IMG/VR virus record: IMGVR_UViG_3300011008_000004
Location: 32,001 to 96,000 of that record
Reading direction: 5' to 3' (one strand)
Source of the DNA: a virus
Lineage: Duplodnaviria > Caudoviricetes
DNA: 64,000 nt
Part shown: piece by piece, positions 9,491 through 62,599 of the stretch
Layout: the number at the start of each line of letters is the position of its first letter
Position numbering within the stretch: the stretch's first letter is position 1
Program-made: the position numbers and the translations under genes
Notes under the pieces: model-generated
The model's input: the letters and a program-made list of their open reading frames with translations, nothing else
The model's database searches: none
What the model was told of the DNA's origin: nothing

Positions 9491-10525
9491 TTACTATTCC
9501 TTAATTATTTTATATTTTAATAAACTATAATATAGCTCATTTAATAATTTTATTTTCTATAAATTATCTGCTCTTGCTAAATAAGTTCTATAGCAAGTAT
9601 AACTGGTTGTGAACTCATTAATAGACTACTTAAAAATCTTTTTCTTAAGTTTTCTTCGTAACTTTTTCAGATACTAAGTTGTAGCTATCTAATAAACTTT
9701 ACCTTTATCATTTAATAAAAATTTAAAACCTAAAAATGTGACTCCCTTATATAGATGTGTGTAACTTGTTTTATCTTTATTTATCTATAAATCAACATCA
9801 TTAAGTTGCTAAGCTATCTTATCTATGTATGTCTAAGGCGAGCTATTAACAATCAATATCATATCATCCATATATCTAATATAAAACTTAACCTTTAAAG
9901 TTTCTTTTATATAATGATCAAGTTTATCTAAATATATCAAACCTAAAATCTAAACCAGCTATGATCCTGCGTTATAACCTATAGCATTATCATTATCGTA
10001 AACTTTTAATATATCATGAACTTTTGAAAAATATTCATCTTGTAATTTCTGTTTAAACAATGCTTCGCTTCTATTATGTCTTATGTTATTATAATACTTT
10101 TTAACGTCTATATGAATTAAATAACCTTTATTATCTCTATAAATTTCATAATACTGCCTTAAAAATTTCTTTAGAGATTGTCTAGCATAATCTGTGCCTT
10201 TATGTTTCTAACAAGCACAATTATAAGTTATTAAAGATCTAGTCATTGTTGGATATATCACTAAATCATTTAATAGTCTCTAATATATTCTATCTCTAAA
10301 TGATATTGCAAGTACTTCTCGTTCTTTTGGATCATGTATTTTAAATTTTTTATGTTTACGCTCTACATATGTATTACTATTTATTTCAGAATATAACTTA
10401 TATGTTTCTTCTAATTGATTTAAAACGTAATGCTAAACTGTTTTCTTCCATTTTACACCGTGAGAACATTTATTGCAACTATCATACAAATTATTAAAAG
10501 TATAAATATTATTAATATCTTTCAT
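9491..10525 (-). CDS. DGR reverse transcriptase, 344 aa in code 15
   Basis: One frame with 13 in-frame TAG and no TAA/TGA until 9491. Motifs: PKERE, FRDRIY(Q)R, CAC(Q)KHKG, IDVKKYY, GYNAGS(Q)LV(Q), YIRYMDD, FLGF. Confidence 0.95.
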
Positions 10526-10692
10526 TGCAGATCAATAAGTATGTAACAATTATGTAACTAATCTTACGTGCAGAATTAATTATCTCACTATAAGACTAGT
10601 TACCTTGTTACACTTTGTTATTAAGAGAGTTAAGCTCCTTTTATGAAAACACAATATAACGTCACTATGTGATGTATCTTTTTATGCTCTAG

Positions 10693-10798
10693 TAAAATCG
10701 GAGAAACGCCATTACTATTGTATGCGTTGTTGTTGTTGAGGTTACCTGAAGTATTCAGATTCCACACATTGTTAGAATTACTACGATTAGGCGATCTA
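10693..10798 (-). repeat. DGR template repeat (TR)
   Basis: AAY-rich (AGA TCG CCT AAT CGT AGT AAT TCT AAC AAT GTG TGG AAT...GGC GTT TCT CCG); differs from 11306-11414 only at adenines plus one codon indel. Confidence 0.96.
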
Positions 10799-10831
10799 CA
10801 GCGACACTCTCTATATTAGACTATTCAAAAT

Positions 10832-11247
10832 TTAATTATTTTGAATACGCTTAATATCACTATTAATCCACTTTAATGGTGTTTCTTTGATATTTAAAAC
10901 ATGACCAACAACATATTCTACACGATTACTCTTAGATGAAAAGCTTTCATGGCAATGTCCCATATAGACAAGAAATCTATGCAATTTTGTATCGCTAATC
11001 TCTATAATCTATATCGTTCATCTTTATTTTTATCATCTAATTTAGTGTTATTCGCTTTCCATAAATTAGTATGAATATCTATTGCTAACTAATTCAATCT
11101 ATCAGTTATAGACGTTTGAAATATTGGCAAAAATATTCTCTAATTCTTTGTTATCTTTAAAATATAAATAGCGAATGACTATGATTCCATAAATAAGTCT
11201 AATGTATTATCACTATTTTTATTACGTTTCCAAGCAGGTACTGACAT
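10832..11247 (-). CDS. avd: DGR accessory protein (Avd-like four-helix bundle), code 15, apparent 1-nt frameshift near 10931
   Basis: MSVPAWKR...WKANN...ERYRL(Q)RLAIQNC...DIAMKAFHL, then KSNRVEY...KWINSDIKR in the adjacent frame; lies between VR and TR; 4 in-frame TAG before the shift. Confidence 0.75.
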
Positions 11248-11259
11248 ATCACCTCTTAA

Positions 11260-11283
11260 TGTAATGCAAATGGTTGCATTACA
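11260..11283 (-). promoter_or_regulatory. DGR cis-acting hairpin downstream of VR
   Basis: Perfect 10-bp stem TGTAATGCAA/TTGCATTACA with a 4-nt loop, about 13 nt after the target stop. Confidence 0.8.
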
Positions 11284-11296
11284 ATTAGTTAATTAT

Positions 11297-12940
11297 TTAA
11301 ATTGTAAAAAGCGGAGAAACGCCATAACTATAGTAAGCGCCGAAGTAGGTGCTGAGGGAACCTGAAGTAAGCAGACACCACACAAAGTGAGAACGACTAC
11401 GAGAAGGCGATCTAGTCCAAACATATTGATTAGACGTTTTAGCTGTAACTGACTACATTACACGATTACTATTTGCATCATTTTTTACAACACCACCATT
11501 TTTCCATAACCAATAATCTGTTACAGTGCCTTCATAGCTATTCACTGAACCCGCAAGTTCAGTGCCACTTGGTAGAGTAAATTGACAATATAATTTATTG
11601 TTAGGTAATTCATAGCCACTTCTATTATAAACGCCATAAGCTACATTATCTTCAATACAAGCCAAATCTTCTGATTTCCACCAGTCTTTAAAACCATGCT
11701 TATTTACGTATGAAGTAGCTAATACGTCGCCTACGTGAGAAGATGAAAACCAATCTAAACCAGAACCATTTAACCATTTATATAAATTACTATCTTCAAT
11801 TATATTTGAACCGTATCTCATTAGATTCATAGTTGAAGTGATACCTGAACCTGGAGCAAATGAGTGTTTAAATACGTATTTGCCCTCATTCGTATCTTCC
11901 CAAGTCTGTATACTATCACCAACTTGATAATCTTCACCTTTAGTTAAAGCCGTAAAACTTTGGTCACCTAAAACTTTATTAGTGCCATAATAGTAATATA
12001 AACTATCTTCAAATAATCCTGTCGCTTTTTCTTGTTCCCTTTCATCACACACTTTTGACACCAATGTGTAAGCTGACTGAATTAATGCACCAGTAAACGT
12101 AACATCTTCACCATCGACTTTTTTAATCATGTTGTCAGATACGTCTAAAACTCTAAACGGCATAGTGTAAGAAGTATTAGTATCTGGATCAGTTAATTCA
12201 CAGTCAAATGTAAATGAGTTGTTTTCATTACTTACTAACGCTTCTCTTTTCTACTCTAAAGTTATAGAATCTAAAGCTAAAAATTCTTTTACAGATTGAA
12301 TTGTCGTTATGCTAGATGTGTTATCATAAGTTACACTAACTGTAACATTGTCTGACAACGTACCCTACATATTGATCGCATGTGGATAAAAACAAACAAC
12401 ACTATCTAAAGTTATAGGTGAAGGACATACTACTTTATAAATCTAATTCAATGGTAGTGAGAAATTTATAGGCGCATTAGATGAAGTGCCTACAGCTATT
12501 TGATTATCATTATCATCTAAAATAGTAATGGTTACATCTGTTAATGGTGTTACTACTGAATCAATTAAAGTAGCTAATGACACAGAAAGTGTTCTCTTAG
12601 TTTCGCTTTTTACGTAATCTACAACAGCCTTACTAGTGGGCGTGTTATCATCTGTAGCGTTATCATCGATTTCTACATCAAATAGCTGTGTTGATGCATA
12701 CACTTTACCGCTCTATTCATATATTGTTTTAATATAGCATCCATCTAACCCAACTAAATCTACATTCAAATTGTTTATAGCTGCCTATCTATTTTGCGCT
12801 TCAACTGCACACACATTAATCATTGAACTATCGTCAGTTTTAATGTATAACTCACCTGTTTGCAAATTAACCACAGGTTGACCTATAGCTGAAGCATCAG
12901 CCGGTGTAGGTACACCTCTTTTTCTTCTAAGTTGTAACAT
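11297..12940 (-). CDS. DGR target protein (tail-fibre/receptor-binding, CLec-like C-terminus), 547 aa in code 15
   Basis: AGGAG RBS and ATG at 12940; joins track ORFs 12443-12703 and 11453-12163 through 6 TAG; ends VWTRSP...GVSPLFTI*. Confidence 0.9.
11306..11414 (-). repeat. DGR variable repeat (VR)
   Basis: About 23 substitutions versus TR, all at TR adenines; encodes the last ~38 aa of the target. Confidence 0.96.
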
Positions 12941-12973
12941 TTATAATCAAACTCCTTAATTTTTAAAACTAAT

Positions 12974-14131
12974 TTACGGTATTAATGCAAATTTTTTATA
13001 AAATACGTATACCTCTGTTGGACTAGTGTCAGCGTTAGCTGCGTTATTTATAGTTACAGTTATACTACTAGACGCAGTATACAAACTAAAGCTTGTGTCA
13101 AATCCTGTAGTACAAACCTACCAACCTTTTCTAGAACCAGCCATTGAACCATCATAGTTAGGAATTAGTATTACAGGTGATCCCATACTAATAAATCCTG
13201 GATAGCCGTTGTACCATTCTCCACCTGATAGACTCATACTAGCGTTGGAATATCCCGTATACTGATAAACTATTAAGCATTCTTTAAGTCCTAAACTTAT
13301 AGTCTATGTACGAGATGCACATTTAGTCAATGTGCCATTAGCGCCTATTAATGCGCAATATAATGCAGCACTAAAAGCATTAGATACTTGATACGGATAT
13401 GCCCAATTAGGCCAGTTCCAACCATAAGTGTCAGTAGCACCATTATATGTAAGATACGCTTCATTATCAGCTAATGGACCACTTTTAAGTAAGAAATATT
13501 TACGCCAAGTGTACGTACCTTTAGACGTGTTAGCTGCGATACATGAAAATAAATCACCAGTAGATGTATTGCGATATAACTAACCTACAGTTCCAACTGT
13601 AGAAGTTGTTGGATCAGACGTGCCATAAATCAACTAAGATTGTATCTCTGATGTAATAGTAGATTCTAAGTTAGATTTTAAACTATAAGCACCTCCTGCT
13701 GTGAAATATAAATTACTCTCAGATGTAGGCGTATTTGTCTATGCATAATTCGCTACATTAGCTAAACCAACATCAGATTTAGTGATTGTAATATCTGAAC
13801 TTAACGCATGATTATTCACTTTTAAAGCTTTATTAACCTTGTTTTCATCTAATGAATTTATAGATACTTGTAAAGAAGATTCTGCTTGTTTAGATCTATT
13901 TATCTCATTATTTAAGTTATTAGATAATGTAAGATTTAAACTATTTATAGCATTCTAACGGCCATTAGCTTCTATATCACTAACATTTTTAAAAGATGTA
14001 ACACGACCTTGATTATCTTCAGATGTAGCTATGTACAATTCACCTGTGTCTAATCTAACAGCCGGTTGTCCTACATGCGAGAAATCATTAACTGTAGGTA
14101 ACCTATCTTTAAATCTTTTTAATAAAATCAT
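12974..14131 (-). CDS. Tail-fibre-like protein, 385 aa in code 15 (absent from ORF track)
   Basis: Open frame with 6 TAG; N-terminus MILLKRFKDRLPT..VGQPAVRLDTGELYI; TKSDVGLANVAN motif. Confidence 0.8.
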
Positions 14132-14210
14132 AAATATTTACCTTTAAAAAATTTAATTTATGATTTTAACTAAAAAAAAAAACACGAAGACAAGTATGCA
14201 TATAAAATTA

Positions 14211-15305
14211 TCAATAATAGTTAGACCAGCAAAATATAGGTTTACCTTTAATGCTAGTTACTGATATATTCACATTACCTGTAGATACTAGTGAAAATGA
14301 AAGTGTATATGTACTAGATGACGTAGTTATTTTAATTGGTAAATCAGCTTCCCATAAACCTCCACCACCAGCGGCAGAAGCTCCGCCACTACAGTGCATC
14401 ATTAAATCAAAAGACAATCCGCTAGGTAACCAACTTGGTTTAGTATATGAATAAGTTTTAGTTGTAGTCTTATTGGCCGTTACAGATATGATACTACCAG
14501 TGCCTGCGGTCATAGCTATATTCAAATCTAACCAACAAAAACGTCCTTCTTTACGTAAAGAATGATTATCTATGCTTTTGGAGCCAGTAGCGCTGTCAAA
14601 TAGTTGCCAAATATCTACTGACTCCGAATTAAAACCCAAATTAGTTAACCTCGATTCTATAGAACCTTTAGTTGAATCATACCCAGATAACGCTGTCTAA
14701 TTAGCGCTATTTAATGAAAATGTGGTATCAGTCAATGATAAGCCAGTTCCAGCTATATATGTAGTATTAATCCAAGGAACAGTTACATAAGCTTTATTCT
14801 CTGCTCCAAGCTTAACAGCATAATGCTGAGCAGTCTCACTATAACCAATTTTAATACCACCTAGAGCTGTCACAGTCGCTGATGGTAAAGTATAAACAGT
14901 ATCTGTAAATTTTGCATCTGAAGGAACACTTTTAGATATAGTATAACTTATCTATTTTATAGAACCATCACTATCAACATACGTAGGCTATATGGTAGAA
15001 CCTATCATAGGATGTGATGAATAAGTCCCAACTTTTGATGCATAAGAAGAATTAGTTGATTTAAATGATGCGTATGTGCCATCAGTTATTTTAACAATTT
15101 CTGTATCTGTATAATTTTTAGCATTAGATTCCGCTGTATTAGCTCTAGTTATAGATAGTGAATCTACTACACTACAAACATTTTTAATGGTTGAATTATC
15201 TGTTTTAATGTATAATTCACCTGTATTCAAATTCACTATAGGCTGTCCTACATCACTAAAATCTGAAGAAGTAGGAACGCCTTTCTTTCGTCTAAATAAA
15301 ATCAT
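14211..15305 (-). CDS. Tail-fibre-like protein, 364 aa in code 15
   Basis: Joins track ORFs 14988-15305 and 14211-14639 through 3 TAG; VGQPIVNLNTGELYIKTD, YTLPSAT...LGGIKIG and YIAGTGLSL motifs. Confidence 0.8.
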
Positions 15306-15367
15306 TATTAAATCTCCAATATGAATAAATTAACTAAAAAAAACCTGAACATCAAAATGACATAAAT

Positions 15368-15397
15368 AAAAGACTGTCTTTTTAGACAGTCTTTTTT
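15368..15397 (-). terminator. Intrinsic terminator
   Basis: AAAAGACTGTCT-tttt-AGACAGTCTTTT inverted repeat. Confidence 0.75.
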
Positions 15398-15405
15398 TAA
15401 TCTAC

Positions 15406-15810
15406 TATTATATCTATCTTAGATATCAAATTATGTAACTCCTATTCTGTAACAGTTACACCTGTGTTTTTAAAATTTCTCAATAAGAGTTGTTTAAATA
15501 TGTACTCATCATCTATGTATGAATCCGTTTTAATGTTAAATAATGCGCTATTAAATTCACTATCAATAGCTACATCACAGGAAATTATTTTGCTATTAGC
15601 TGGATTCTCTGTATTATAGTTGTATATGTGATGTAAATAAATATTACATCCATTTATACACATTAAAACAAATAATATCGTTTCATTTAAATACTAAGAA
15701 TTTATATAACAATCCCTTTTCCACCATAATATATCTTTAGCATTGTGAATATTATTAAATTTAACTTTCTAATCAGGAGTCATATTAGTTAGTAATTCTT
15801 CTAAAGTCAT
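15406..15810 (-). CDS. Hypothetical protein (MTLEE/MTFEE paralog family), 134 aa in code 15
   Basis: ATG at 15810, 3 TAG, TAA at 15406. Confidence 0.7.
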
Positions 15811-20261: not shown

Positions 20262-20882
20262 TCATAATTCAATAATCCCATCTAAACATTGAATTTTACA
20301 CGTTTTAGGAATACCGTAATCCCATTCATACTTCTTATCTACATCATTCCACTCATCTATAGTGCCATCAAATATAATACTATTTAATTTTTTACAATAA
20401 TTAAACGCATAGTCATGAATAGATTGCAAACCCTTATGTAAAATAACTTTAACTAAGTTGCAATTACTAAAAGCATAAGAATGGATATATTTAACACTAC
20501 TTGGAATATCAATCTCAGTAAGACTATAACATCTAGAAAAAGCTTCAGATCCAATACCTTCAAGTTTATCATGTAATCTTATCTATTCTAATTTATGACA
20601 ATCCATAAAAGCGCCACGAGAAATAAATGTACAATTATTTGGAATCGCTATCTAAGCAATATCACTCTCTAATAGAAAAAAGTCAGGAACATTGCTAGTA
20701 TACAATAAAGGATCAATTCCTGCTTCAAAAAATAACTCAGTAAACTAGCCAATATACTGCCAATATGATTTTTTATAATTATAAATATTCTCATATAACT
20801 TATCAAACTAATTACTGTTCAATAAACTATAATTAGGTTCTTCGCTTAATATGGTTTGTATGTCAGATTGTGATAAACTCAT
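20262..20882 (-). CDS. BspA-type leucine-rich repeat protein, 206 aa in code 15 (absent from ORF track)
   Basis: 4 in-frame TAG; AGIDPL motif; IG.EAFSRCYSLTEIDIPSSVKYI-type repeats. Confidence 0.85.
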
Positions 20883-31083: not shown

Positions 31084-33019
31084 CTAATCAATAACCTCAA
31101 TATTAAGAAGATTATCTAAAGAACACAATAAGAATTGTGAACCTTCAGAATCTTTTTCTTTAATAGCACCCATGCTAATCAACGCTTGTTTAGTAATAGG
31201 CGTACCATCTTCAAGAAAATAACTAGCAGTTCCTGCAGATGGATTAGCGAATTGAATATATTTCTTTTCAGGATCTTTCTTATTTTGAACTATACCAACA
31301 TAGTCTGTCTTTTCAAACCAAGATGGTCTACTTTGAATTCCTTGTTCAAGTCTTTCTTGTAATTTTTCTTTTACACCTGCAATATCTTCATAGTTAACAC
31401 CAAATTGTGCTTCTATAATAGAATGCTTAATAAATTTAATACCTTTAAGACCTTTCTTGTCAGATCTCATTTCAATTCTTACTTTATCACCAGATTGTAA
31501 CTTTTTTGCTAAAACTTCATTTAAATTCATAATAACACCTCTTTAATTTTATAGTTTAATTATAAACCATTTCATCAAATATGTCAACTAGAATTACTTA
31601 TTTAGATACTTCTCTTTATTTAAACATCTTTCGCATGTCTTTCTACAATCATCTAAAAAGAAATGCATGTCAATAACTGCATCAAATGCACTATTATTTT
31701 GTTCTATAAATCTATCTTGCGCTTTACAACCTTTTTCGCATGTAAATCTACAATATTCGTCTTTTTCACCAAATAAAGCTATGATCTCTTCATCGGTTAA
31801 ATTAGAAGTCGTATTCATCATCTATATTACTCTCCCGAAATGCTTCAGTTCTTTCATCGTCACGAATTTCATCTTCATATTCACTGATAGCTCTATCTAA
31901 ATCATAGTTTAAAATAGACTCAGAATACTTTTTAGTGGTAGCTTCTTTTACGATATCTTTAATTTTTTCTCTAAAATAATAACTATCCATATCTTTTTCC
32001 TCGTATAAATTATACAATTCCTGATGTTACGTCTTTATAACTTTTAAATAGATTATCCATAAAATTAGACCAGTAATTATATTTTTCAATATCTTCACCT
32101 GATATAATGTATTTACTATGAACTCTATAATAAAGTCCTTGTTTAGCATCTTTAAAGAATCTTTCTCTAACTGTATTATTAATTATAACACTATCACAAT
32201 AAGATACATCTTCTCTTCCAGTTCTTCTAGCAATAGAAATTTGTTTACTATTATTCTTACGAATTAGTTTAGATGTGCCTTCAACATAATAAACTACCTT
32301 GCTATTTAAGTCTAAAACATTAGCGCTTGGAAGCGGCTTTTCAATGATTTCTGAGGCCTTAGAATCACCTACACGCTTAGAAACTAATTCACTAAATAAT
32401 TTATACAATTGACACATATCGTCCCTACAATTAGCTACTAGCGTATGATCATCTAGCTGTTTCCAATGAGAATTAGCTCTTATAAATCGCATTACTTCAT
32501 TAGCATTAAGTTCGAATTGCTTATAAATGTTTAACGTATCTCTCATCTTATTATCAGATAAGAAAAATATACGATTTTCATTATCATATCTAATAAACAT
32601 TATTCAGCTCCTTTAGGACCTTGTGGACCTGGATCATCTAAATGTGTAGGTTTAATATCTAAAGCTTTTTTAAGCTCCATCATAGAGTAAGCATACTGAA
32701 TTTCTTCTTCACTGCTAAATGGACACTTATTATTTAATATCTCAGGACAATCTTCTTGTAATTTACAATAATAAGTTTTTTCTTTAGTTTTAAAATCTAT
32801 AATACAACCTAAACCTGGACACTCTTTATCACATTCAATGTCTTTAGTTTCAAATACTTCGGGATGTGAAATATACATTTGAATCATGTTCTTAAATGCA
32901 GGAGTTAACATATTTAATTGTTCTTCATTAAACACTAGTTCTCCTGTGGAATCATATGTTAAAGCACTAAAGAATTCTTTTAATGCAGGTAGGTTAATTT
33001 TATCGGGATTATATTCCAT
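31084..33019 (-). other. Five hypothetical genes
   Basis: ORF track; promoter TTGACA-17-TATAAT at 31559-31587. Confidence 0.65.
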
Positions 33020-33672: not shown

Positions 33673-34607
33673 TCAAATTGACTGACTCTTATCTGAATAA
33701 TTTTTATTTAAATAATTATCCACTTGTCTAGAAACTAATGCTCCAGAACTTTCTGCTACTATAACTTGTCGCATTGCTTCTCTCATGCAATCTCCAGCAG
33801 CATATATTCCTGAAAATGTATTTATAGCTCCTATATAACCGTTACTGTCTAAATCTACTACATCTTTAAATGGTTCATTATTAGGAACTAAACCAATTGC
33901 TAAAAATACACCATCTAATTCTAATGTATATGTTACTCCTTCTTTAAAGTAATCTATACCTACTAAATTGTTGTCATCGTCTATGCGATAGCTTTGAACT
34001 TTGGCGCTGGTAATAATCTCTATATTAGCTTTAGCATATATATTTTCTTGTAATTTTTGTTCCCCAGTTAATATCGCTAAATCTTGAACAACATAAACTT
34101 TTTAGCGATATTAGATAGTTCTAACGCTTCTTGTAAAGCAGAATTCCCACCACCAATAACCGCTACAACTTTATCTCTATAAAAAGCTCCATCACACATT
34201 ACGCAGAAAGATATGCCTTTTCCAATTAAGTCTTCTTCATTAGGTAAACCTAATAATCTATGCTTAGTTCCACTAGCAATTATAACTGATTTAGCATAAT
34301 ATTCATCACCAAAAGCAGTTGTTATAATTTTAGTACGACCTTTACGATCTACTTTAACTACTTCATCATATATAACGTTTATATTATTGTATTCTAGTTG
34401 TTCCAATAATTTAAATCCATATTCTTCACCAGATATAGAATTAAAACCAGGAATATTTTCAACTTTAGGTGAATTTAATATTTGCCCACCTACAGCTGTT
34501 TTCTCAAACATTATAACATTTTTATTAGCTCTATTAAGATATATCGCAGCAGAACAGCCGGCTGGTCCTGCGCCTATAATAGCGCAATCAAAAATAATTT
34601 TATCCAT
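33673..34607 (-). CDS. trxB: Thioredoxin reductase, apparent 1-nt frameshift in an A-run near 34100
   Basis: GAGPAG, CVMCDG, GGGNSA; continues in the adjacent frame (VYVVQDL...GVFLAIGLVPN...GIYAAGDC...RQVIVA) to TGA at 33673. Confidence 0.85.
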
Positions 34608-35059
34608 TACTCACCTTTTCTAAATCTATAAGTTATATCTTGTTTATTAGGTTTCATTTTATACATTACTTGATTAGTTGTTATCTTATTTAATGGACCT
34701 TTATCCTCTTGATAACTTCCAACTTTATAATAATCTAAATGTTTAGATAACTCTTCATCGAAAATATCATCGCCACTATACATTGCAACTAATAAATTTT
34801 TAGAATGAATGTAATCTGCTAGTGCAATTATTTCTTGATGTCTATTATCTCCGCCCATAAAACATATACAACTTATATGCTTATTTTTAACTATAAGTTT
34901 ATCTATCTCATTACAAGTTAGTTCAACACCTATATCTTCTCTCAAATGTGGAGAATGACAATTTTTACATAAGTGTGGACATCCTGAGATCTCAAGTGCC
35001 AGACTTATTTCATCTGGCACTTCTTGAAAAACTATAGAATAATCTACGTATTTAATCAT
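34607..35059 (-). CDS. nrdG: Anaerobic RNR activating protein (radical SAM)
   Basis: CPHLCKNCH motif, adjacent to nrdD. Confidence 0.9.
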   Translation of the reverse strand: MIKYVDYSIVFQEVPDEISLALEISGCPHLCKNCHSPHLREDIGVELTCNEIDKLIVKNKHISCICFMGGDNRHQEIIALADYIHSKNLLVAMYSGDDIFDEELSKHLDYYKVGSYQEDKGPLNKITTNQVMYKMKPNKQDITYRFRKGE

Positions 35060-36141
35060 TTTATTGTATCTTCTTTAGCGTAATAACGCTTAATAGCTTC
35101 AGCTTTTCTAACATCACTAAAATTAGATATTCTTTTTAAATAACCAATAATTCTTGTAGCTTTATCAATATTTGTAGATCCACATTTTGGACAATGATCT
35201 AAATTATCTTTGGTTATATGACCACATTCATTACATATTGTATTTGGAATATTAAATGTGCCATAACTACAACCAGCATCAATCCAAATATCCATTAACT
35301 TTCTATATTGTGATTTGCTTAAATGTGAATCTAAGTTACAATGATAGGCACTTCCGCCATCTAAGTTTCCGATAAAATCTTTTCCTTGTAGGTAAGATTT
35401 TTCAATTGGATCATATGTAGGATCTTCAACAGGATAAAAATAAGAATTATATAGATTTCTAGTTTTAGGAACTACATACCCATCACGTTTATCCCAAGCG
35501 TATAGTTTAGCTCCTGCATTCTCTGCAGGCACAAACTCTGTGTTATATTTCAAATGTTCGGAATGATGAATTGTATTCAAGTTCTTAATTGTAGTTAAAA
35601 TATCATAAGCAAATTGCTTATACGCTTTATTATCGGATTTAATCGCAATATCCTTGTATTCATCAGGTACAAATTCATTCATACTTGCTAAAAATTCTGC
35701 GCCCTCAATAAAACCATTTATACCTACTGTTAAAAATTGCTTATCCAAATCGATGAATCCAGCGTTATAAACTGTAAGTAAATTAGCGTTATACATATCC
35801 CATAAGTGATCATTCCAAGCTTCTAAATACTTATGAACTCTATCAACTATATCTGTAATATACTCAGATAAAGTCTTCCTATTTCTTTTGTATTTCTTAT
35901 TTACTTCTTCATTAAACCAATTTTGAACAATTCTATTTATATTCAAAGTAATAACTTTCTTAGATCCAGTTTCTACACCGCCAGCCCCTAATGTATAACT
36001 AAATACATTTTCTTCAATTGCATTTTTCAACCTGCAATTATGAGTTAGTATATCATTAGCATAAAACCAATGATTCTTTTGTAATTCAATATCATATACT
36101 TCTTTAGTTGTAGCTTCTACTGTTACTGATCTTATTTTCAT
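35056..36141 (-). CDS. nrdD: NrdD C-terminal half preceded by 35-aa split-intein C-fragment
   Basis: RBS and ATG at 36141; MKIRSV...YDIE..NHWFYANDILTHN|CRLKN; PAEN, CxxC...CPKC, RIIGYL glycyl-radical motif. Confidence 0.92.
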   Translation of the reverse strand: MKIRSVTVEATTKEVYDIELQKNHWFYANDILTHNCRLKNAIEENVFSYTLGAGGVETGSKKVITLNINRIVQNWFNEEVNKKYKRNRKTLSEYITDIVDRVHKYLEAWNDHLWDMYNANLLTVYNAGFIDLDKQFLTVGINGFIEGAEFLASMNEFVPDEYKDIAIKSDNKAYKQFAYDILTTIKNLNTIHHSEHLKYNTEFVPAENAGAKLYAWDKRDGYVVPKTRNLYNSYFYPVEDPTYDPIEKSYLQGKDFIGNLDGGSAYHCNLDSHLSKSQYRKLMDIWIDAGCSYGTFNIPNTICNECGHITKDNLDHCPKCGSTNIDKATRIIGYLKRISNFSDVRKAEAIKRYYAKEDTIK

Positions 36142-36158
36142 TCTATAACTTCCTCTAT

Positions 36159-37448
36159 TTAACATTCATGTATATGTATTCGCTCATGATGCTCATAATC
36201 AATACAAATTTTTCTTAAAATATTGCTATTATTATAATCTTTCCTTCTACACCAACATATATCTAACTAATCAGTATATAATAGCTAATGCGCAAATTCA
36301 TATAAATCTTTATTGCTAATTTCTTTTATATTTAATATTTTACAAAAAGATTTATAGTCTAATACATGTAAAATTAAACCTAAATTATGCATACTACTAC
36401 ATATTTCTTTGTATTTGTCAGCATCATAGCGCTATAAACTAGACTTTATCTCATAAAACTCATTATTTACTTTAAAATCAGGTAGATAAGAATATTTATT
36501 GCAATTAATTAAATTTATAGTTTCTGCTTCATATAAATAATCAATATTATTTAAATATAATGTGGCAGCTACCTTAAATTCTTCAAAACTTCTACAGTAT
36601 TTATGCAAACCTATATTTGGACATTTAAATTTTATACCATAAGAAGTAAGCTTAAATGTGCCGTCATATGCATATGCAGACTATCTTTCTGCTTGAAATT
36701 TACTTAATCTCTATCGTGCTTCAGGCGTTGAAGCAGGATTATTTTCGTGCCAGATTTGACGCTATAATTCACGAAGTTCTCTGCCTCTATCAGTGTCACT
36801 GTAAAATTTTTTCTTATTTTGTGATAAATTCTATTTATGCTTTTCTGTAAAAATATTCTTAACATTAACATCTAGATTGTAAGTCTTACAGTAATTTTCC
36901 CATGATATATTATGTGATCTTACAACATGATCTTTAATAGCTACACGATATTTACCACATATTTCACATTTAAATGGCTTATCAATATCATTTTCATCTT
37001 TATGTAATATAACATTGTGTTTCTATTTCAAATGTTTACAATATTCATTTTTATACTTAAACTCTTTTCCGCATATCTCACATCTGTAATAACCTATCTT
37101 TTTCTTAAGTTTAACAGATATAGGATATTCAGGATATTCTAATTTGTAATCGTTTATATCAACATAGCCATGTTGTTCACGTAAATGTCTAAGTAAAGAT
37201 ATCGCTTTTTTACCGCATATAGGACATATTACATATTCAGCATTGCGAGCTTGCTCATACTTATCTAATACATCTATGCATTCTTCATAGATATCTAAGT
37301 GATATTTATGAAGATGATGTTTTAAAGATTGCTGTGTAAAACTCTCTTTATAATGTTTACCGCATATAGGACATAGCTAATTGCCTACCTAATTCTTGCC
37401 TTCAAACTTTTTATAAATTAGATTGTATTTCTACTGAGTTGTTAACAT
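36159..37448 (-). CDS. C2H2 zinc-finger + PD-(D/E)xK endonuclease (putative homing endonuclease), 429 aa in code 15 (absent from ORF track)
   Basis: Open frame with 11 TAG; four CxxC...H...H fingers; RSFEE...YE...YLPDF...YEIK; GAGGT RBS. Confidence 0.85.
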
Positions 37449-37599
37449 TTATACTATCTACCTCATTTAAATATTTGGTGATAATATAACGAATTTCAGC
37501 CGTTTCATTTCTAAAATCTTTTTCAGCTTCTATTTGTAATCTTTTATAAATAGACTCCGGGAGAGCGATTGTTTTTATAATTGTTTTTTCTTTTTCCAT
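37411..37599 (-). CDS. Ribbon-helix-helix (Arc/CopG-like) DNA-binding protein
   Basis: TIALPESIYKRLQIEAEKDFRNETAEIRYII. Confidence 0.7.
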   Translation of the reverse strand: MEKEKTIIKTIALPESIYKRLQIEAEKDFRNETAEIRYIITKYLNEVDSINVNNSVEIQSNL

Positions 37600-37614
37600 A
37601 CTATCACCATTATC

Positions 37615-37623
37615 TAATTTAGC
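37615..37623 (-). promoter_or_regulatory. GCTAAATTA candidate promoter inside the nrdD interruption
   Basis: Shared 9-mer, 15 nt upstream of the RHH start. Confidence 0.6.
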
Positions 37624-37641
37624 TAGTAAATTTAATTATTT

Positions 37642-38934
37642 TTAATCTTTTTTAATCAATTCATATCTTTCAAAGTTGTTAACTAAATCTTTTGCTTTAA
37701 TTTCTACTTTGTCACCAGATACATTATCAACTACAAGAAGCACATGTTCAGGAGTAACTTCTAAAACACTACCATCTTCTGATTCTATCTTAATTAAATT
37801 AGGATACTCATTGTCTTTTATAAGTACACCAGTGATATCAGAATATTCTATCATATCTTTTTCAATATTATATGACATTGTTTCATAATCACTATAATCT
37901 TTACTGTGATTTATACAGAAAGTGCTAATTGGCATAGTAATAATTTTTAAAGATGTCTTATGTCTGATCGTTATCAACTCATTTCCCTTAAAACAACAGC
38001 TAGCTAATGCATCAGCTGAATCTGAATTATATAAAAAGAATGAATGACCTTTGGACCACATTTCAGCAGTGAAATCAGCCATTTCTTCATCTACATATTT
38101 ATGTGTATCTTTGTCCCATAGCAAATTCATTGTCTCAACAGGAAATGTGATAACATCATGGGTTCTTTCATTATTAAACCAATTCATAAACATTTTCTGT
38201 AATTCTTTTGTAGATTCCCAATTAGGTTCATCACCATCTGGGAATATAAAATCTTTAAATATTGAATTAAAATATCCCTTATCAAAATAAGCAATATTAG
38301 TAAATGGTGATTGATAACCTCTAGCGCCTGCAGGTTGATTTATACAGTAAACAAATTGTTGAAATAAATCTTCAATTTTATTTCTTAAAGTAGCTCTTCT
38401 ATTGCCAAAAGCTTCTACAGTTTCATCTAAATTTGTTATATAATCTTCACCGTAATCTACTCTTAAAAAGTGATCTAAATAAGGTAAAAATTCTGGAACA
38501 GCGACAGCCCCTGCAAATTGACCTGCTATTAAAAATACTAAATTTGTTAAACCACCTATAAATGAATCTGAATGTTTAGGCGGGCCACTTGTTCCGCCTA
38601 ACTTCTTTAAGCCATCTAATAAAAATGGATATAATGAAATAGCTACACAATATGGCATAATTGAACTCTCATCATGTGAATATATGATGTGATTTTTTAA
38701 ATCTAAATCAAACTGATCACACAACTCTTGGCCATATTTAATCAATAAATATTTCTTTGTTATAGCACGATTTACGTCTATAAAATCAGGCTTAGATAAT
38801 TCTGAAGACATTGTTGCTACATTCTTAGTAGTTACATTAGCATTAGCATCTACTTCAGAACCGGATGCAGCGTTACACGCTTGTTTATAATTCTCAATAA
38901 ATTTAAGTTTCTTATTTAAAGTCCTTTCATCCAT
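37642..38934 (-). CDS. nrdD: NrdD N-terminal half (313 aa) fused to a 117-aa split-intein N-fragment
   Basis: IYSHDES..PYC, QFAGAVA, QSPFTN, TFPV, DALASC|CFKG...EVTPEH...; ends at TAA. Confidence 0.92.
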   Translation of the reverse strand: MDERTLNKKLKFIENYKQACNAASGSEVDANANVTTKNVATMSSELSKPDFIDVNRAITKKYLLIKYGQELCDQFDLDLKNHIIYSHDESSIMPYCVAISLYPFLLDGLKKLGGTSGPPKHSDSFIGGLTNLVFLIAGQFAGAVAVPEFLPYLDHFLRVDYGEDYITNLDETVEAFGNRRATLRNKIEDLFQQFVYCINQPAGARGYQSPFTNIAYFDKGYFNSIFKDFIFPDGDEPNWESTKELQKMFMNWFNNERTHDVITFPVETMNLLWDKDTHKYVDEEMADFTAEMWSKGHSFFLYNSDSADALASCCFKGNELITIRHKTSLKIITMPISTFCINHSKDYSDYETMSYNIEKDMIEYSDITGVLIKDNEYPNLIKIESEDGSVLEVTPEHVLLVVDNVSGDKVEIKAKDLVNNFERYELIKKD

Positions 38935-38936
38935 AA

Positions 38937-39179
38937 TTATTTCGCCTCGTGTATATAATTCATTATCGCTTTGCCATATATAATTTCTTGTCTAGTTACA
39001 AGTTCACCATTTTCATCTGTTTCTGTAATTTCGACTCGTAAAGCTGGCGTCTGCCTTACACCTTCAGCTTTCATAATATTAATATCTTGACAATCTTCAT
39101 AAGATATATTATTTTTATCCAACAACATATGAATTACACGACATTGTGGACAACCTGGTTGACTATATAATTTAATCAT
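38937..39179 (-). CDS. Glutaredoxin/NrdH-like protein
   Basis: CPQC and TP motifs. Confidence 0.85.
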   Translation of the reverse strand: MIKLYSQPGCPQCRVIHMLLDKNNISYEDCQDINIMKAEGVRQTPALRVEITETDENGELVTRQEIIYGKAIMNYIHEAK

Positions 39180-39299
39180 AAAACCTCTCTTTTATAGATA
39201 AAACCGTCTATTGTTATAGATGGTTGTTACTATACAACTTCTAGCAATCTTAAATTTCTTGTGTTTAATTTAGCTCGTTTAAGACGATATAGACTATCC

Positions 39300-39420
39300 G
39301 TGAACTACCGATAGCTGAAGCAATCGGCTTCCTGCTCAATGCAACCACTGTTGCAAGTATCAACAGGCTAACCCCGTAGTCCCTACGGTTTTTATAATTT
39401 TTATACTTTATTGATTATAC
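39300..39420 (-). ncRNA. TnpB omegaRNA scaffold
   Basis: Structured right end downstream of tnpB with stems TGCAAC/GTTGCA and CCGAT/ATCGG; 5' boundary unknown. Confidence 0.65.
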
Positions 39421-40526
39421 AGAAGTCTAAGTCCTTCATTCAGAATATTTATTGCCGCATTCTGATCTCTATTATGATGTGTTCCGCAATCTGGACAAGT
39501 CCATTCTCTTATAGAAAGAGAATTTACAATATCTTTGTGATAACAACCACATTCAGAACAAACAATGGTTGTAGGAGTAAATCTTCCTATTTTAACTAAT
39601 TGTTTTCCTTGAGATTCTAATTTCTGTTGAAGTCTTGTTCTAAAATAACCAAAAGCATTATCCATAGTTGATTTTCCTAGTCTTAGTGCTTGAGATTGAG
39701 CTTTCATATCAATATCTTCAATACAAATTATATCATATTTCTCTGCAAGTTTCTTAGATTCTTTTTCAATGAAATCTTTTCTTTGATTAGTTATTTGTTC
39801 ATGAATTTTTGCAACTTTAATCTTTTGTTTTTCATAGTTATTTGAGTACAATTTCATATGAGATAACTTACGTTGTTCTTTAGCTAATTTTGGTTGAGAT
39901 TTCTTGAATAATTTTACAAACCCCTCAGGTTTATTGTTTTGGCTATCAACATAAAACTCTGGAGCGCTGTAATCTAATCCAACTGCTTTATTTTTGTCTA
40001 ATTTTATTTCAGGTATTTCATACTCATATTCAGCAAGAATACTTATGAAATATTTACCTGAGTTTGTTTGAGAAATGGTTGCTGATTTTATAATGTAATC
40101 TTGCGGAATGAATCTATGTTCAACAAATTTAATAGGTCCAAGTTTGGGAAGCTGGATTCTATTATTAGAGATAATTCTTATTGAATTGTTTACACAATTA
40201 GTAGTATAAGATTTTTTATCAAATTTTTTCGATTTGAATTTAGGAAATCCATTTTTAATATTTCTAAAGAAATTATTATAAGCTGTTTGTAAATGCATTT
40301 GCTCATTAGCTAAAGCTAAAGAATCAACTTCTTTTAACCAATCGAATTCTTCTTTGTATTGAGCAGGTGTGTTTTTGAGATTAACCTTATCTTTCTTATA
40401 AGCCTCAATTTTATCAGCTAACATCTTATTGTAGATAAATCTACAGCAGCCAAATGTTTTTTGTAGTAATATTTCTTGCTCTTTATTTGGATACAGGCGA
40501 TATTTGAAACATTTATTCATGAACAA
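39408..40526 (-). CDS. tnpB: RNA-guided endonuclease TnpB
   Basis: KYRLYPN HTH; RuvC D/E/D intact (GLDY, IEDI, RDQNAA); CSECG...CPDCG Zn finger. Confidence 0.95.
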   Translation of the reverse strand: MFMNKCFKYRLYPNKEQEILLQKTFGCCRFIYNKMLADKIEAYKKDKVNLKNTPAQYKEEFDWLKEVDSLALANEQMHLQTAYNNFFRNIKNGFPKFKSKKFDKKSYTTNCVNNSIRIISNNRIQLPKLGPIKFVEHRFIPQDYIIKSATISQTNSGKYFISILAEYEYEIPEIKLDKNKAVGLDYSAPEFYVDSQNNKPEGFVKLFKKSQPKLAKEQRKLSHMKLYSNNYEKQKIKVAKIHEQITNQRKDFIEKESKKLAEKYDIICIEDIDMKAQSQALRLGKSTMDNAFGYFRTRLQQKLESQGKQLVKIGRFTPTTIVCSECGCYHKDIVNSLSIREWTCPDCGTHHNRDQNAAINILNEGLRLLYNQ

Positions 40527-40783
40527 CTTCCTTACTAAAATAAAAATAGCTTATTTGATTGGCGGATCAAATAAGCTATAATTACTCTATATCAAACTAT
40601 TGCTAGTTTAATAACATTATAATATACAATATTGATTCCGCCAAATCAACAATAATCATTTCTGATTACAGATAATTTAGCTAATAAAATACATAGAAAA
40701 ATACCGAAATTCAAAGAATATTTCAAATCATCTAAAGCAATTCATCCGATGACTGAAGTCAAAGGATTTCCTGCTGAGTTAGG

Positions 40784-48646: not shown

Positions 48647-50062
48647 TCAATTAAAAACTATGCCTTCTATATTAGAAGCAGTATTAGCATGATTCACATT
48701 ATTAATGGTAAAATATATAGGTTTATCATTGATACTACCAGCAACCGTAGCATTAGTAGCTACTAAAGTAGCAGTATTATCCCCTTTTCTCCAAACATCT
48801 GTGTCATCTACAGGGGCTACGTTCACTTTTAAATTCCCAGTCATAGTGCTACCTGATTTATAGACAAAATAAGTACCTACAAAATTATTTACCCAAGTTT
48901 CAAGATATTTTCTATTTACTACGCCTTCATCATCTTTAGGGGCCGACATTACTCTAGCTGAGCCATCTTCATAAACTTCAAATGCATTACTTTGTACACT
49001 TCCAGCTTGAAGGCCGTTACCTACAATAAAATACGCGCTATTATTTTCTTTATTACTAATGCCAATTACTGTTTGATATGGCCTTGTGGCTTTTAAGTTA
49101 TTACCGAAAGCAAAAGACGCGAATTGAGACGCTGTGCACGCATTTCCACCAGCAAATGAACTCTCCCCGCTAGCTATGCATGCATAACCTTGCGCGTGTG
49201 AATGTTCTCCACTAGCTATAGTAGACATACCTTCTGCGTGAGCACCTCTTGCAGTTGCTTGAGTGCCATCACCTTCTGCGTGCGCCCAACAATTATCAAC
49301 GCTAGTCATATTAGGGTTTCCAACTATACAGTCACCGCCTGTAGCAAAAGCCCCACGTCCATATAACGTATTACCAGAACCTAACGCAACACTTCTTTCA
49401 CCGTTTACAGTATTACCTTTACCTAATGCCGCAGAATATCTATCATTGATAACATTGTTAACTCCTGCTATGAATGATGCCTTGCCTTCATTGTTATTGT
49501 TAACTCCTGATATGAATGATGTCTCGCCTTCATTATTATTGGACTTCCCATTTATAAATGAAGCCATACCATTATTGCTGTTACCAAAGCCACTAACTAA
49601 ACTCGCAACGCCTAAATTAGGATCCATAGCACTGCCATTTATGTTATTCGCGCCAAGAACCATACTTGAAATCCCGTAATTACCATTACTTACATTAGTA
49701 GTGATTCCTAAACCTGCAAGAATATATCTAGTAGAACCTTCTTGTGTTATAGGTCCATCAGCAATCTGCTCAGCCATTGCCTGTGTCATACCTTGTGATA
49801 CAAGGTATGCAACTACCACCGGACGAATATAAGCATTTAATTCTACATAAGAAGCTCCTTTCTACACAAGCGAACTAAGACCCACACCATTCTATAAATT
49901 ATCATTATTAGATGTAATAGACTCTAATAAATTTAACTATGTAGAACCATCACCTATATATAACTTATTCTCGGTCTTATCATAAAATGGCTAACCATCA
50001 AGTAAACGCAAGGTACTGCTTTTTCTTTTCTCTGAGGTACCTCTCATAATCTAAATTGACAT
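48647..50062 (-). CDS. Tail-fibre/adhesin with Mtd-N-like anchor and YadA-head-like repeats, 471 aa in code 15
   Basis: MSI(Q)IMRGT...DG(Q)PFYDKTENKLYIGDG extends the track ORF by 81 codons through 5 TAG; AHAEG and SxAxG 14-mer repeats. Confidence 0.85.
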
Positions 50063-57318: not shown

Positions 57319-57669
57319 TTAATTTTCATAAAATTTACCTTTTATATGTATTGCTTTACTTAAATCATATGGGATATTAGCATCTAATGCAAACTCTGGA
57401 AATGGTTCTATTCTATATTCTATAAAATGCTCTCGTAATAATTTCTTTATCATTTTAACAACAACTTTTGGAGATGCGTCCTATTTAGTAGATCTATCTA
57501 AAAAGAACCACTAACCTGTAGTTAAAATCATCATACTAATATTTTTATTAATTATAACTGCATATAGCATTATATTGTCATCAGACACAAATAATGGCGC
57601 ATACTACACTAACCAATTCACAGCGTTATCAGTTAGACGTAATTCTTCATACTAATTTATCTTTTTCAT
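57319..57669 (-). CDS. Hypothetical protein, 116 aa in code 15 (absent from ORF track)
   Basis: ATG overlaps the upstream TGA; 4 TAG; exactly fills the gap between genes. Confidence 0.7.
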
Positions 57670-60852: not shown

Positions 60853-61742
60853 ATCAAATTCTCATATATGTTAGACATAGCTTTTATAACTGATTCATCT
60901 AAGCTTTTAATTAAACCACTTTCTCGTTTATTAACTGTATCTACAATAAGTTTATTAAATTCTGCACTTGGAATAAACTTATATTTTATTTCATTATTTT
61001 CTAAAGATATATAAATTTTTCCTTCAAATGTATCAATCTCTGAAATAGTCTTACCTTCTTTCATATCAAGATACAAATCATCGCTATGTATCATATTCAT
61101 ATAATTCTTTAATTTAGTTAAAGATTTCATTGCAACCCCAGAAATTGAGCTGCATTTATCAATTATTCCCATCGTTAAATATCCTCTAATGTCTTACTTA
61201 TAGTCTTTAAAGACTTACGTTTTAATTCTGCAAAAGCAATGTCACTAACAGTGCTCATGTCACGATAATATGATTTTAACGCTAAATCCAATCTTTTTTG
61301 AACTAATGATGCAAATAACTCTTTTGCATCTACATCTATATATTTATTTAAATCATTTATAATATTAGTTATCATTAGAAGTTCCTACGAAATTATAGTC
61401 TTTAAGTATCTTACAAACTTGTAAATAAATAGATTTTACGTTACGTAATTCTGATGACTTAAAACCAATGGTTCTTATAGCCGCATCATAGTCTTTACCA
61501 TCAATATTAACATATTGATAAAGCAATATAATATTTGCTAATGACTTAGTTTCAGCAATTGTTGGAATTCTTATGGTTCTCCCACCAAATATTGCACATA
61601 AATTTAAAAAATTAGGTTTGTCTAATGTATAAGCTAATTCACTTATAGAGGAATACTCTTGAATATCTGTAAGTTTATATAATACAAACATCAGTAAAGC
61701 ATATTGGTCTGTTTCTTTTAATGTACTTAAATTCTTTTTCAA
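60849..61742 (-). other. Three hypothetical genes
   Basis: ORF track. Confidence 0.6.
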
Positions 61743-62599
61743 CTGTCAGTCTCCTTTAATATTTCTGATAAATTATCCTTTATAACATCTTCAATAACTT
61801 TATCAGATAAATCATATTCTGCACTTATCTCACGAATATTAGATGTAAATGCTCTCTTAATCTTTTGCATTAATACATGTATATATGTCTCAAAATCACT
61901 TCCTAAACCATAAGTTATAGAAGGCGCATCACTGTTTATTAAGTAAAATTTGGATATAGCATTCTAAATTCTATCATCTAAACTATTGCCACTTCTTAAT
62001 CTATCAATTTTCTTCTTTTGTTGCGGTGTTAAAGATATAGTATCTATAAACGATTTAACAATTGATATGTATATGTAATGAGCCATACGTGTATTATTTC
62101 CATAGGCACATTCTTTAACTACTTTCTTAAATAAACCAGGCAGTGATCTTAAATATGATCTCACTTCAACTAGTCTCATCTAACCGGCATCAGCTCTTAT
62201 TGGACCAGCCATATAATTTTTAAAGAGTTCAGCAGCTTCTGCATCACCTTCTCTTGTACTAAATCCAAATTCTTGAGCTGCAAACTCACACTTCTTAGGA
62301 TATAACACAGCTTTCATGTAATTAAGACATGATTTTACAGGAGATAAAAACTTTGGATCAGTCTCCGGTAAAAATTGTCTATCAGTAGTCATACGTATAT
62401 ACGTTATATTTGCTAAATAGTAAGCAAACTACTCGCTATAATACTACTTATTAAAATATTTCTTCTTTAGTATTAGCATATAAGCTATCTAAGTAAGTTC
62501 AGTATAAACTCTTTCGATAACTTTAGGGTCTTTACTCATAATATTAGCGTCTACATCTATACATAAGTCTACGAAACGCTACGTTGGTTTTCTAATCAT
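61739..62599 (-). CDS. Hypothetical protein, 286 aa in code 15
   Basis: Joins track ORFs 62180-62392 and 61964-62179 through 6 TAG; start and stop overlap both neighbours. Confidence 0.8.

Follow-up and report, generated by a model that had tools for sequence, protein, structure and literature searches.

How does a phage obtain a working anaerobic (class III) ribonucleotide reductase (RNR) when nrdD, the gene for its large subunit, lies in two pieces? The question is raised by a 64,000-nucleotide stretch of a phage genome (IMG/VR record IMGVR_UViG_3300011008_000004, positions 32,001 to 96,000), the whole of which we call the window, in which nrdD is encoded as two separate genes, each carrying part of an intein at the break. 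We conclude that a functional natural split intein very probably rejoins the fractured class III RNR, and that it is most likely accompanied by a homing endonuclease cassette. Every gene of the nrdD region is carried on the minus strand, where the two nrdD genes are made up as follows (window positions; IntN and IntC are the N- and C-terminal intein halves; aa, amino acids; nt, nucleotides; ORF, open reading frame; E, E-value).

37642 to 38934, minus strand: gene 1, 430 aa, a 313-aa NrdD N-extein followed by the 117-aa IntN (ORF map)
37996 to 38934, minus strand: NrdD N-extein, 313 aa, ending ..DALASC, without an ATP-cone (Pfam NRDD, E 1.9e-36; phrog_25611, E 1.6e-82)
37645 to 37995, minus strand: IntN, 117 aa, opening with Cys1 (CFKGNEL..), with block B ..VTPEH.., ending ..YELIKKD (Pfam Intein_splicing positions 19-87; family alignment A2)
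36149 to 36155, minus strand: ribosome-binding site of gene 2, GAGGAAG, 7 nt before the ATG at 36141
36037 to 36141, minus strand: IntC, 35 aa, MKIRSV..NHWFYANDILTHN / ..VYDIELQKNHWFYANDILTHN (match to Protein Data Bank (PDB) entry 6QAZ; Pfam Intein_splicing positions 121-155; alignment A3)
35056 to 36036, minus strand: NrdD C-extein, 326 aa, starting CRLKN (Pfam NRDD, E 7.8e-47)

A first-pass annotation of the window had proposed this arrangement, and the limits that it drew for the intein halves (37995-37645 and 36141-36037) are exact when set against the ORF map and the sequence, as is its claim that gene 2 begins behind a ribosome-binding site of its own. Gene 1 ends with a TAA at 37642-37644, followed by one AAA codon and then a second in-frame TAA. 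Each half is thus an ORF of its own, gene 1 with its TAA stop and gene 2 with its ribosome-binding site and ATG; wherever the contig of a relative extends to the IntC gene, which is so in 6 cases, the halves likewise lie on separate ORFs with their own stop or start. A longer gene 2 ORF, from an ATG at 36165, is unlikely, as the homologues begin at MKI.. and this ATG overlaps the stop of the upstream gene. The C-extein carries a CxxC..CxxC zinc ribbon (CNECGH..CPKCGS) and the glycyl-radical motif TRIIGY. All the features of an NrdD of the SCCR type, as in Thermotoga maritima, are present: an NRDD domain in both halves, SC/CR after splicing, the zinc ribbon and RxxGY.

The predicted splice junction reads ASC-CRLKN. 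Aligning it with uninterrupted homologues, as the annotation had advised, is informative, since locus L001 (MT835470.1), which at about 50% identity is the closest of these among the collected phages, has ..DSLSSC-CRLRNE.. at the same place, and this stretch in turn aligns to 328-SCCR-331 of T. maritima NrdD (4COI/4U3E). The split falls precisely between the two Cys of the SCCR motif. The ASC-CRL junction deduced from the window is borne out by this homologue, by the T. maritima motif and by an intein-less allele described below. The T. maritima SCCR has been equated with 288-MGCR-291 of phage T4, the finger-loop motif bearing the radical cysteine (PMC4493059), and the second SCCR Cys, which is the +1 nucleophile of the intein, aligns with radical Cys290 of T4 NrdD. 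The intein thus sits between the two SCCR cysteines, and its +1 nucleophile takes the position of the catalytic thiyl cysteine in this alignment. In the crystal structure of T. maritima NrdD, however, the SCCR motif lies outside the active site and not at the finger-loop tip (PMC4493059). That the gene is broken at its active site, as had been claimed, therefore rests on the alignment to T4: the correspondence with Cys290 stands, but the T. maritima structure does not place the motif there.

The two intein halves match complementary parts of the Pfam Intein_splicing model, IntN covering positions 19-87 (E 6.6e-6) and IntC positions 121-155 of its 155. Blocks A and B are recognisable in IntN as C1 (CFKG) and TPEH, and blocks F and G in IntC as the terminal His-Asn followed by Cys+1. 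The 17-member alignment A2 is invariant at C-1, C1, G and T..H, and alignment A3 at VYDIEL, H and HN/C, so that the splicing residues are invariant across 17 (A2) and 8 (A3) diverged members of the family. Relative to the closest relative, L003 (about 65% aa identity), the ratio of nonsynonymous to synonymous substitution (dN/dS) is 0.32 for IntN and 0.19 for IntC, and well under 1 in the exteins too; these ratios indicate that both intein halves are under purifying selection. The resemblance of the IntC tail to that of gp41-1, which the annotation had noted, is confirmed by PDB entry 6QAZ, to which IntC aligns over 27 residues with 63% identity (E 8.6e-6), 12 of the last 13 residues being identical.

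We also predicted the IntN-IntC complex from alignments A2 and A3. The interaction prediction score from aligned errors (ipSAE) was 0.75 compared with 0.00 for the best control, with runs agreeing on at least 93% of contacts and a partner pLDDT (predicted local distance difference test) of at least 75. The mark that this prediction passed is reached by 58 of 80 solved complexes and by 2 of 110 mismatched pairs. However, because split-intein complexes have already been solved, the pass may reflect likeness to them, and is to be read as likeness rather than proof.

Alleles and relatives at the insertion site

We compared the contigs of four public sequencing runs (X1-X4), none of them an RNA run and each covering a small share of the window, with positions 35000-39000. 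A 418-nt DNA contig from run X3 joins 37993-38293 (7 mismatches) to 35917-36027 (0 mismatches), leaving out 1965 nt and having 6 nt of its own between the two parts. On the minus strand it gives GCT AGC TGT TGT CGT TTA AAA AAT, or ASC-CRL-KN, identical to the predicted spliced sequence, and we take it to be an intein-less allele of a near-identical phage. Differences from the window are confined to 4 synonymous changes in the first three C-extein codons, with 0 in the next 111 nt; such a cluster beside the insertion point would fit a diverged endonuclease target. Contigs of runs X1, X2 and X4 carry occupied junctions and nuclease sequence with 0-6 mismatches.

We searched 1.84 billion cluster representatives exhaustively with IntN, using HMMER, and obtained 30 proteins at E <= 1e-3. 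More than half of these (17) are NrdD N-fragments that end 117-127 aa after Cys1, with the junction ..SC/C(F/V/L)xG.. and a common ..Y-x-I-P-I-E-like tail, and a further 4 have a contiguous intein at the same NrdD site. With the IntC end of gene 2 as the query, we obtained matching NrdD C-fragments that begin with IntC, plus further cis forms. The size of the family is a lower bound, at least 17 diverged clusters of metagenomic proteins having the same split, and because of these clusters the arrangement is not new to databases, only to the searchable literature. The suggestion of a new split intein in a class III RNR thus holds as far as papers are concerned, none having been found, but not for sequence collections. 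A DNA search of the phage collection with window positions 34000-40600 gave zero matches.

Two relatives are particularly useful for viewing the split alongside other states of the same site. A viral contig (L004) encodes a 952-aa NrdD with a cis mini-intein at the same SC/C site, having CFKGNELI, TPDH and VYDIELEKNHYF..THN in common with the window. The break of the window intein corresponds to a linker of about 20 residues in L004, the place in an intein where an endonuclease is usually inserted. The closest relative, L003, is a 2.5-kb contig with the same split and about 65% aa identity in inteins and exteins alike. Its spacer is 123 nt long, and 83 nt of this (L003 2015-2097, counterpart of window 36148-36230) correspond by homology to about 24 codons at the end of the window's intervening nuclease and to the gene 2 ribosome-binding site (score 35, compared with a shuffle maximum of 19). 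Because this remnant of the nuclease 3' end remains before the IntC gene, L003 looks like a locus that lost its nuclease by deletion and kept its split intein. Among nine split loci, six have a homologue of the nuclease family and three have short spacers of 79-289 nt.

Other members of the family depart from the pattern in their own ways. The phage NrdD at L006 1715-6089 (also L007) has two inteins, the first contiguous, with LAGLIDADG traces, inside a 998-aa N-gene, and the second a split intein at SC/C with a 289-nt spacer. At L009 7541-8569, IntC ends ..NVGN before CRL, not ..THN, so that the penultimate His is missing, and the N-gene stops at TAG. Family member P0025 has the junction ..SLSSC followed by IAADQ.., without Cys1 at the start of the intein, and may be an inactive or atypical variant.

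The reading frames between the halves and TAG recoding

Two ORFs lie between the nrdD halves.

37411 to 37599, minus strand: small ORF, 62 aa, weakly ribbon-helix-helix-like, without TAG (Pfam RHH_5, E 0.035; TraY, E 0.045)
36159 to 37448, minus strand: putative homing endonuclease, 429 aa, with 11 in-frame TAG read as Gln (open frame; homologue alignments)

The 62-aa ORF and the nuclease ORF share 38 nt, at the end of the former and the start of the latter, and the small ORF is absent from the other split loci examined. The annotation had placed a TAA stop and two genes between the halves. The TAA and the two ORFs are there, but the second ORF is open only if its 11 TAG codons are sense: frame 1 of the 1476-nt spacer opens with an ATG (37448) and closes with a TAA (36159), interrupted by these TAG codons and with zero TAA or TGA inside. 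No TAG codons occur in the two nrdD halves, nrdG or the small ORF, and the nrdD halves are in the standard code.

A standard-code homologue of the 429-aa frame lies between the NrdD halves in L009/L010 (31% identity, E 9e-48). Its alignment spans 8 aligned TAG positions and extends past the TAG at which translation table 11 would stop. Across the window, about a dozen gaps in the ORF map close once TAG is taken as sense, and most genes are without TAG. Two tRNA(CUA) genes lie outside the window, at G000:C1 2606-2680 and 163136-163233; the second, of 98 nt, has an extra arm, UGGG.. stands at the beginning of both as in tRNA-Gln, and by our reading the acceptor ends of both resemble those of tRNA-Gln. 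Other ORFs that open with TAG as sense, all on the minus strand and with 3-13 TAG each, are at 9491-15810, 20262-20882, 48647-50062, 57319-57669 and 61739-62599.

The 429-aa frame has four C2H2-type fingers (Pfam matches at or just under the cut-off), a NUMOD-like linker and a C-terminal restriction-endonuclease-like domain with an E..D..ExK motif, and the E, D and ExK are invariant in a four-way alignment of nuclease homologues. Homologues sit between the halves in L009, L014 and L015 and directly after the N-gene in L008 and L013; of the 6 nuclease loci, four are flanked by both halves and in two the contig ends before the IntC gene. No Pfam or PDB sequence match assigns the intervening nuclease to the GIY-YIG or Vsr-like families, and word-based protein searches and viral-contig scans with it or with its L009 homologue gave no match. 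In a tblastn search of phages, the L009 homologue matched nothing but 35 residues of finger sequence in an 'endonuclease' of a Bacillus phage.

We modelled the nuclease domain of the L009 homologue with AlphaFold from a 3-sequence alignment, reaching a pLDDT of 70.8; a single-sequence model of the whole homologue had a pLDDT of 38.5 and was unusable. The best structural matches of the domain model were TnsA (Z 6.4, root-mean-square deviation 3.8, 127 residues aligned), VRR-NUC, AdnAB, I-Bth0305I (Z 4.6), Bax1, Vsr (Z 4.2) and Hjc, all of them below Z 8, a range in which a fold match can mean merely a common arrangement. Foldseek comparison of the same model with the PDB gave nothing at E <= 0.001, the best E-value being 0.02. 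Thus, the predicted fold is consistent with the restriction-endonuclease type, and is not decisive.

Proposed mechanism and its alternatives

In the mechanism that we favour, the two nrdD genes would be translated separately, and IntN (117 aa) and IntC (35 aa) would join into one HINT domain. Cys1 would form a thioester, to be attacked by the +1 Cys of the C-part, and Asn35 of IntC would cyclise, releasing a 639-aa NrdD with a restored SCCR motif for activation by NrdG. The cassette between the halves would act as the mobility module. Its product would be a homing endonuclease of the PD-(D/E)XK type with zinc fingers, whose targets are most likely the nrdD alleles of co-infecting phages that have no intein; repair of the cut would then copy in the whole cassette. 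Because of its 11 TAG codons, the nuclease would be made only once the phage tRNA(CUA)-Gln suppressors act, probably late in infection. More tentatively, and as a reading that we hold to be less likely than not, we suggest that the NrdD split-intein family travels with its own undescribed homing-endonuclease family (C2H2 array plus TnsA-like PD-(D/E)XK core), here held back by the 11 TAG codons until the Gln amber-suppressor tRNAs act. Additionally, the three junction cysteines (C-1, C1 and C+1) might make splicing redox-dependent, in which case the oxygen-sensitive reductase would be assembled only under reducing conditions.

Several points weigh against this interpretation. The spliced product is a prediction from the sequence. 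The intein model search proposed by the annotation does find both halves in complementary parts of the profile, but each match taken singly falls under the curated cut-off (26.4 and 20.9 vs 35.8 bits). The PDB matches of IntN are weak (E 0.018) and are to PolII inteins, and phmmer gave no match between IntN and gp41-1 (6QAZ) even at E up to 10. For the intein-less allele there is a single contig, of low depth (about 5), in a single run. For the cassette, the nuclease fold derives from the L009 model built on 3 sequences (pLDDT 70.8), whose best match reaches Z 6.4, and the target, activity and late timing of the endonuclease are pure inference.

Another way to view the locus is that the halves assemble without being spliced, the intein pieces serving as non-covalent docking domains for the NrdD fragments. 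The endonuclease-fragmented NrdA of Aeromonas phage Aeh1 offers a precedent for docking (PMC3045599), and the predicted IntN-IntC interface would suit docking equally well. However, docking alone does not need the splicing residues, and every one of them (C1, T..H, HN and C+1) is invariant in the 17 and 8 diverged members. Moreover, if the SCCR alignment is a guide, a HINT domain of 152 residues left unspliced would lie between the two cysteines of the motif, at the very point from which the radical cysteine has to contact its substrate. We regard docking without splicing as improbable.

Alternatively, the locus could be in decay, an endonuclease insertion having broken a former cis-intein and left the nrdD fragments as non-functional relics. 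Some decay in the operon is suggested by the frameshift in the neighbouring trxB-like gene, and a TnpB element lies nearby. Against this, both nrdD ORFs are intact with their own start and ribosome-binding site, dN/dS is well under 1 in intein halves and exteins, and the same break point recurs in 17 clusters. The complete genome also has no other RNR than nrdD, and its nrdG and nrdH-like genes are intact. Decay seems to us very improbable. That RNA splicing, stop read-through or ribosomal bypass removes the interruption before or during translation, yielding a single cis-intein precursor, is barely credible even in a phage that recodes TAG, as gene 1 stops at a TAA with a second in-frame TAA one codon on and not at TAG, the 1.5-kb spacer holds two ORFs in other frames, an Rfam search of 34500-39500 found no intron, and the ribosome-binding site and ATG that IntC has of its own are also conserved in relatives whose spacers measure 79-289 nt.

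Protein splicing in trans thus remains our reading of a gene that is set in an operon with the following neighbours:

38937 to 39179, minus strand: NrdH/glutaredoxin-like redoxin, 80 aa, directly upstream of nrdD (Pfam Glutaredoxin, E 1.2e-5)
34607 to 35059, minus strand: nrdG-like activase (radical SAM), 150 aa, overlapping the nrdD stop (Pfam Fer4_12, E 1.2e-6)

The phage is of gut type, and its genome is a complete virus record of 214,257 bp with terminal repeats and 29.7% guanine plus cytosine. No class I or class II RNR was found in this complete genome, NrdD being the sole RNR large subunit found, and the split nrdD intein is the only intein found there. A promoter scan of the region gave fewer sigma-70-like sites than in shuffled sequence and was uninformative.

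After nrdG lies a thioredoxin-reductase-like (trxB-like) gene (33673-34607, minus strand) split over two frames. Its N part ends ..SNIAKKFMLFKI and then TAG, and the remainder (..VYVVQDLAILTGEQ..AAGDC..) continues in the -1 frame from a run of five A at about 34097-34101, where inserting one A would merge the two frames into one ORF of about 310 aa. The frame break might stem from a homopolymer error, mark a pseudogene or be bridged by slippage on U_AAA_AAG. A TnpB-like gene (39408-40526, minus strand) with HTH_OrfB_IS605, OrfB_IS605 and Cas12f1-like TNB domains lies immediately upstream of the nrdH-nrdD operon, and near it there is a hairpin plus T-run at 39374-39388.

Comparison with known systems

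Protein ligation tools are developed from natural split inteins, the fastest known of which came from fractured phage genes. The locus adds class III RNR as a host enzyme class, in which we found no split intein described, and its at least 17 diverged clusters are a source from which split inteins with Cys+1 could be drawn. It also provides a record of the intein life cycle at one site, where it is found empty, filled by an uninterrupted mini-intein, or split, the split form having either a nuclease gene or only a remnant of one. Current understanding is not overturned by the split NrdD intein.

The putative nuclease would, going by the model of the L009 homologue, have a restriction-endonuclease-like core in common with I-Ssp6803I, I-Bth0305I (PMC3239194) and TnsA. 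It differs from these in giving no match at the level of sequence, and its motif is E..D..ExK rather than a Vsr-like active site. Its 3-4 C2H2 fingers, arrayed at the N-terminus, are not known from any of the three.

For the recoding, the closest parallel is with TGA-recoded phages where an early gene in the standard code contains a group I intron homing endonuclease that is itself rich in the recoded stop (Borges et al., bioRxiv 10.1101/2021.08.26.457843). The two cases share a homing endonuclease that is rich in recoded stops, is placed inside an early standard-code gene and would be expected only late. They differ in that the published case is a group I intron with TGA read as Trp, whereas here a free-standing gene lies between split-intein halves and TAG is read as Gln. 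The locus would thus extend the published idea, that recoded stops delay the synthesis of homing endonucleases, from an intron to a split intein.

A search of the open-access literature for a split intein in NrdD or another class III RNR found none, the nearest being contiguous putative inteins in the nrdD of Clostridium phage c-st and Lactococcus phage 949 (PMC3653736). These and the L004 intein share their host gene with the window, and the mini-intein of L004 shares its SC/C insertion site as well; all three are single polypeptides, whereas the window intein is split.

In the comparison with gp41-1 (6QAZ, 6RIZ; bioRxiv 10.1101/546465), the likeness lies in the window IntC, of 35 aa and ending ..FYANDILTHN, and in the canonical split position. 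The window intein differs in its 117-aa IntN, for which phmmer gave no match to gp41-1, in its host, which is NrdD and not a helicase, and in having Cys as the +1 residue. In gp41-1 the +1 residue is Ser. With similarity in IntC and none detected in IntN, the window intein does not appear to be of the gp41-1 type. The annotation had offered it as a candidate orthogonal intein; because the IntC is 63% identical to that of gp41-1 over 27 residues, cross-reaction is possible, and this likeness argues for caution on orthogonality.

The fractured genes of Dassa et al. 2009 (PMC2677866) comprise gp41, IMPDH, DnaE, NrdA, NrdJ, ligase and terminase, with nucleases that are GIY-YIG or Vsr-like. All four genes that the annotation had named as fractured (gp41, NrdJ, NrdA and IMPDH) are in this list, and NrdD does not occur in the text of that paper. 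The layout is the same, with the N-part of the host protein plus IntN, an endonuclease gene, and IntC plus the C-part of the host protein in this order on one strand, mainly in phages, in an enzyme of DNA precursors, with the break at the usual endonuclease-insertion position and relatives both with and without the endonuclease. What differs here is a C2H2-finger nuclease with a canonical E..D..ExK core, the TAG sense codons and an extra small ORF. Thus, we conclude that the fractured-gene layout is a known arrangement of which NrdD is a further, uncharacterised example, the more novel side aspects being a nuclease family that is apparently undescribed and its apparent gating by TAG.

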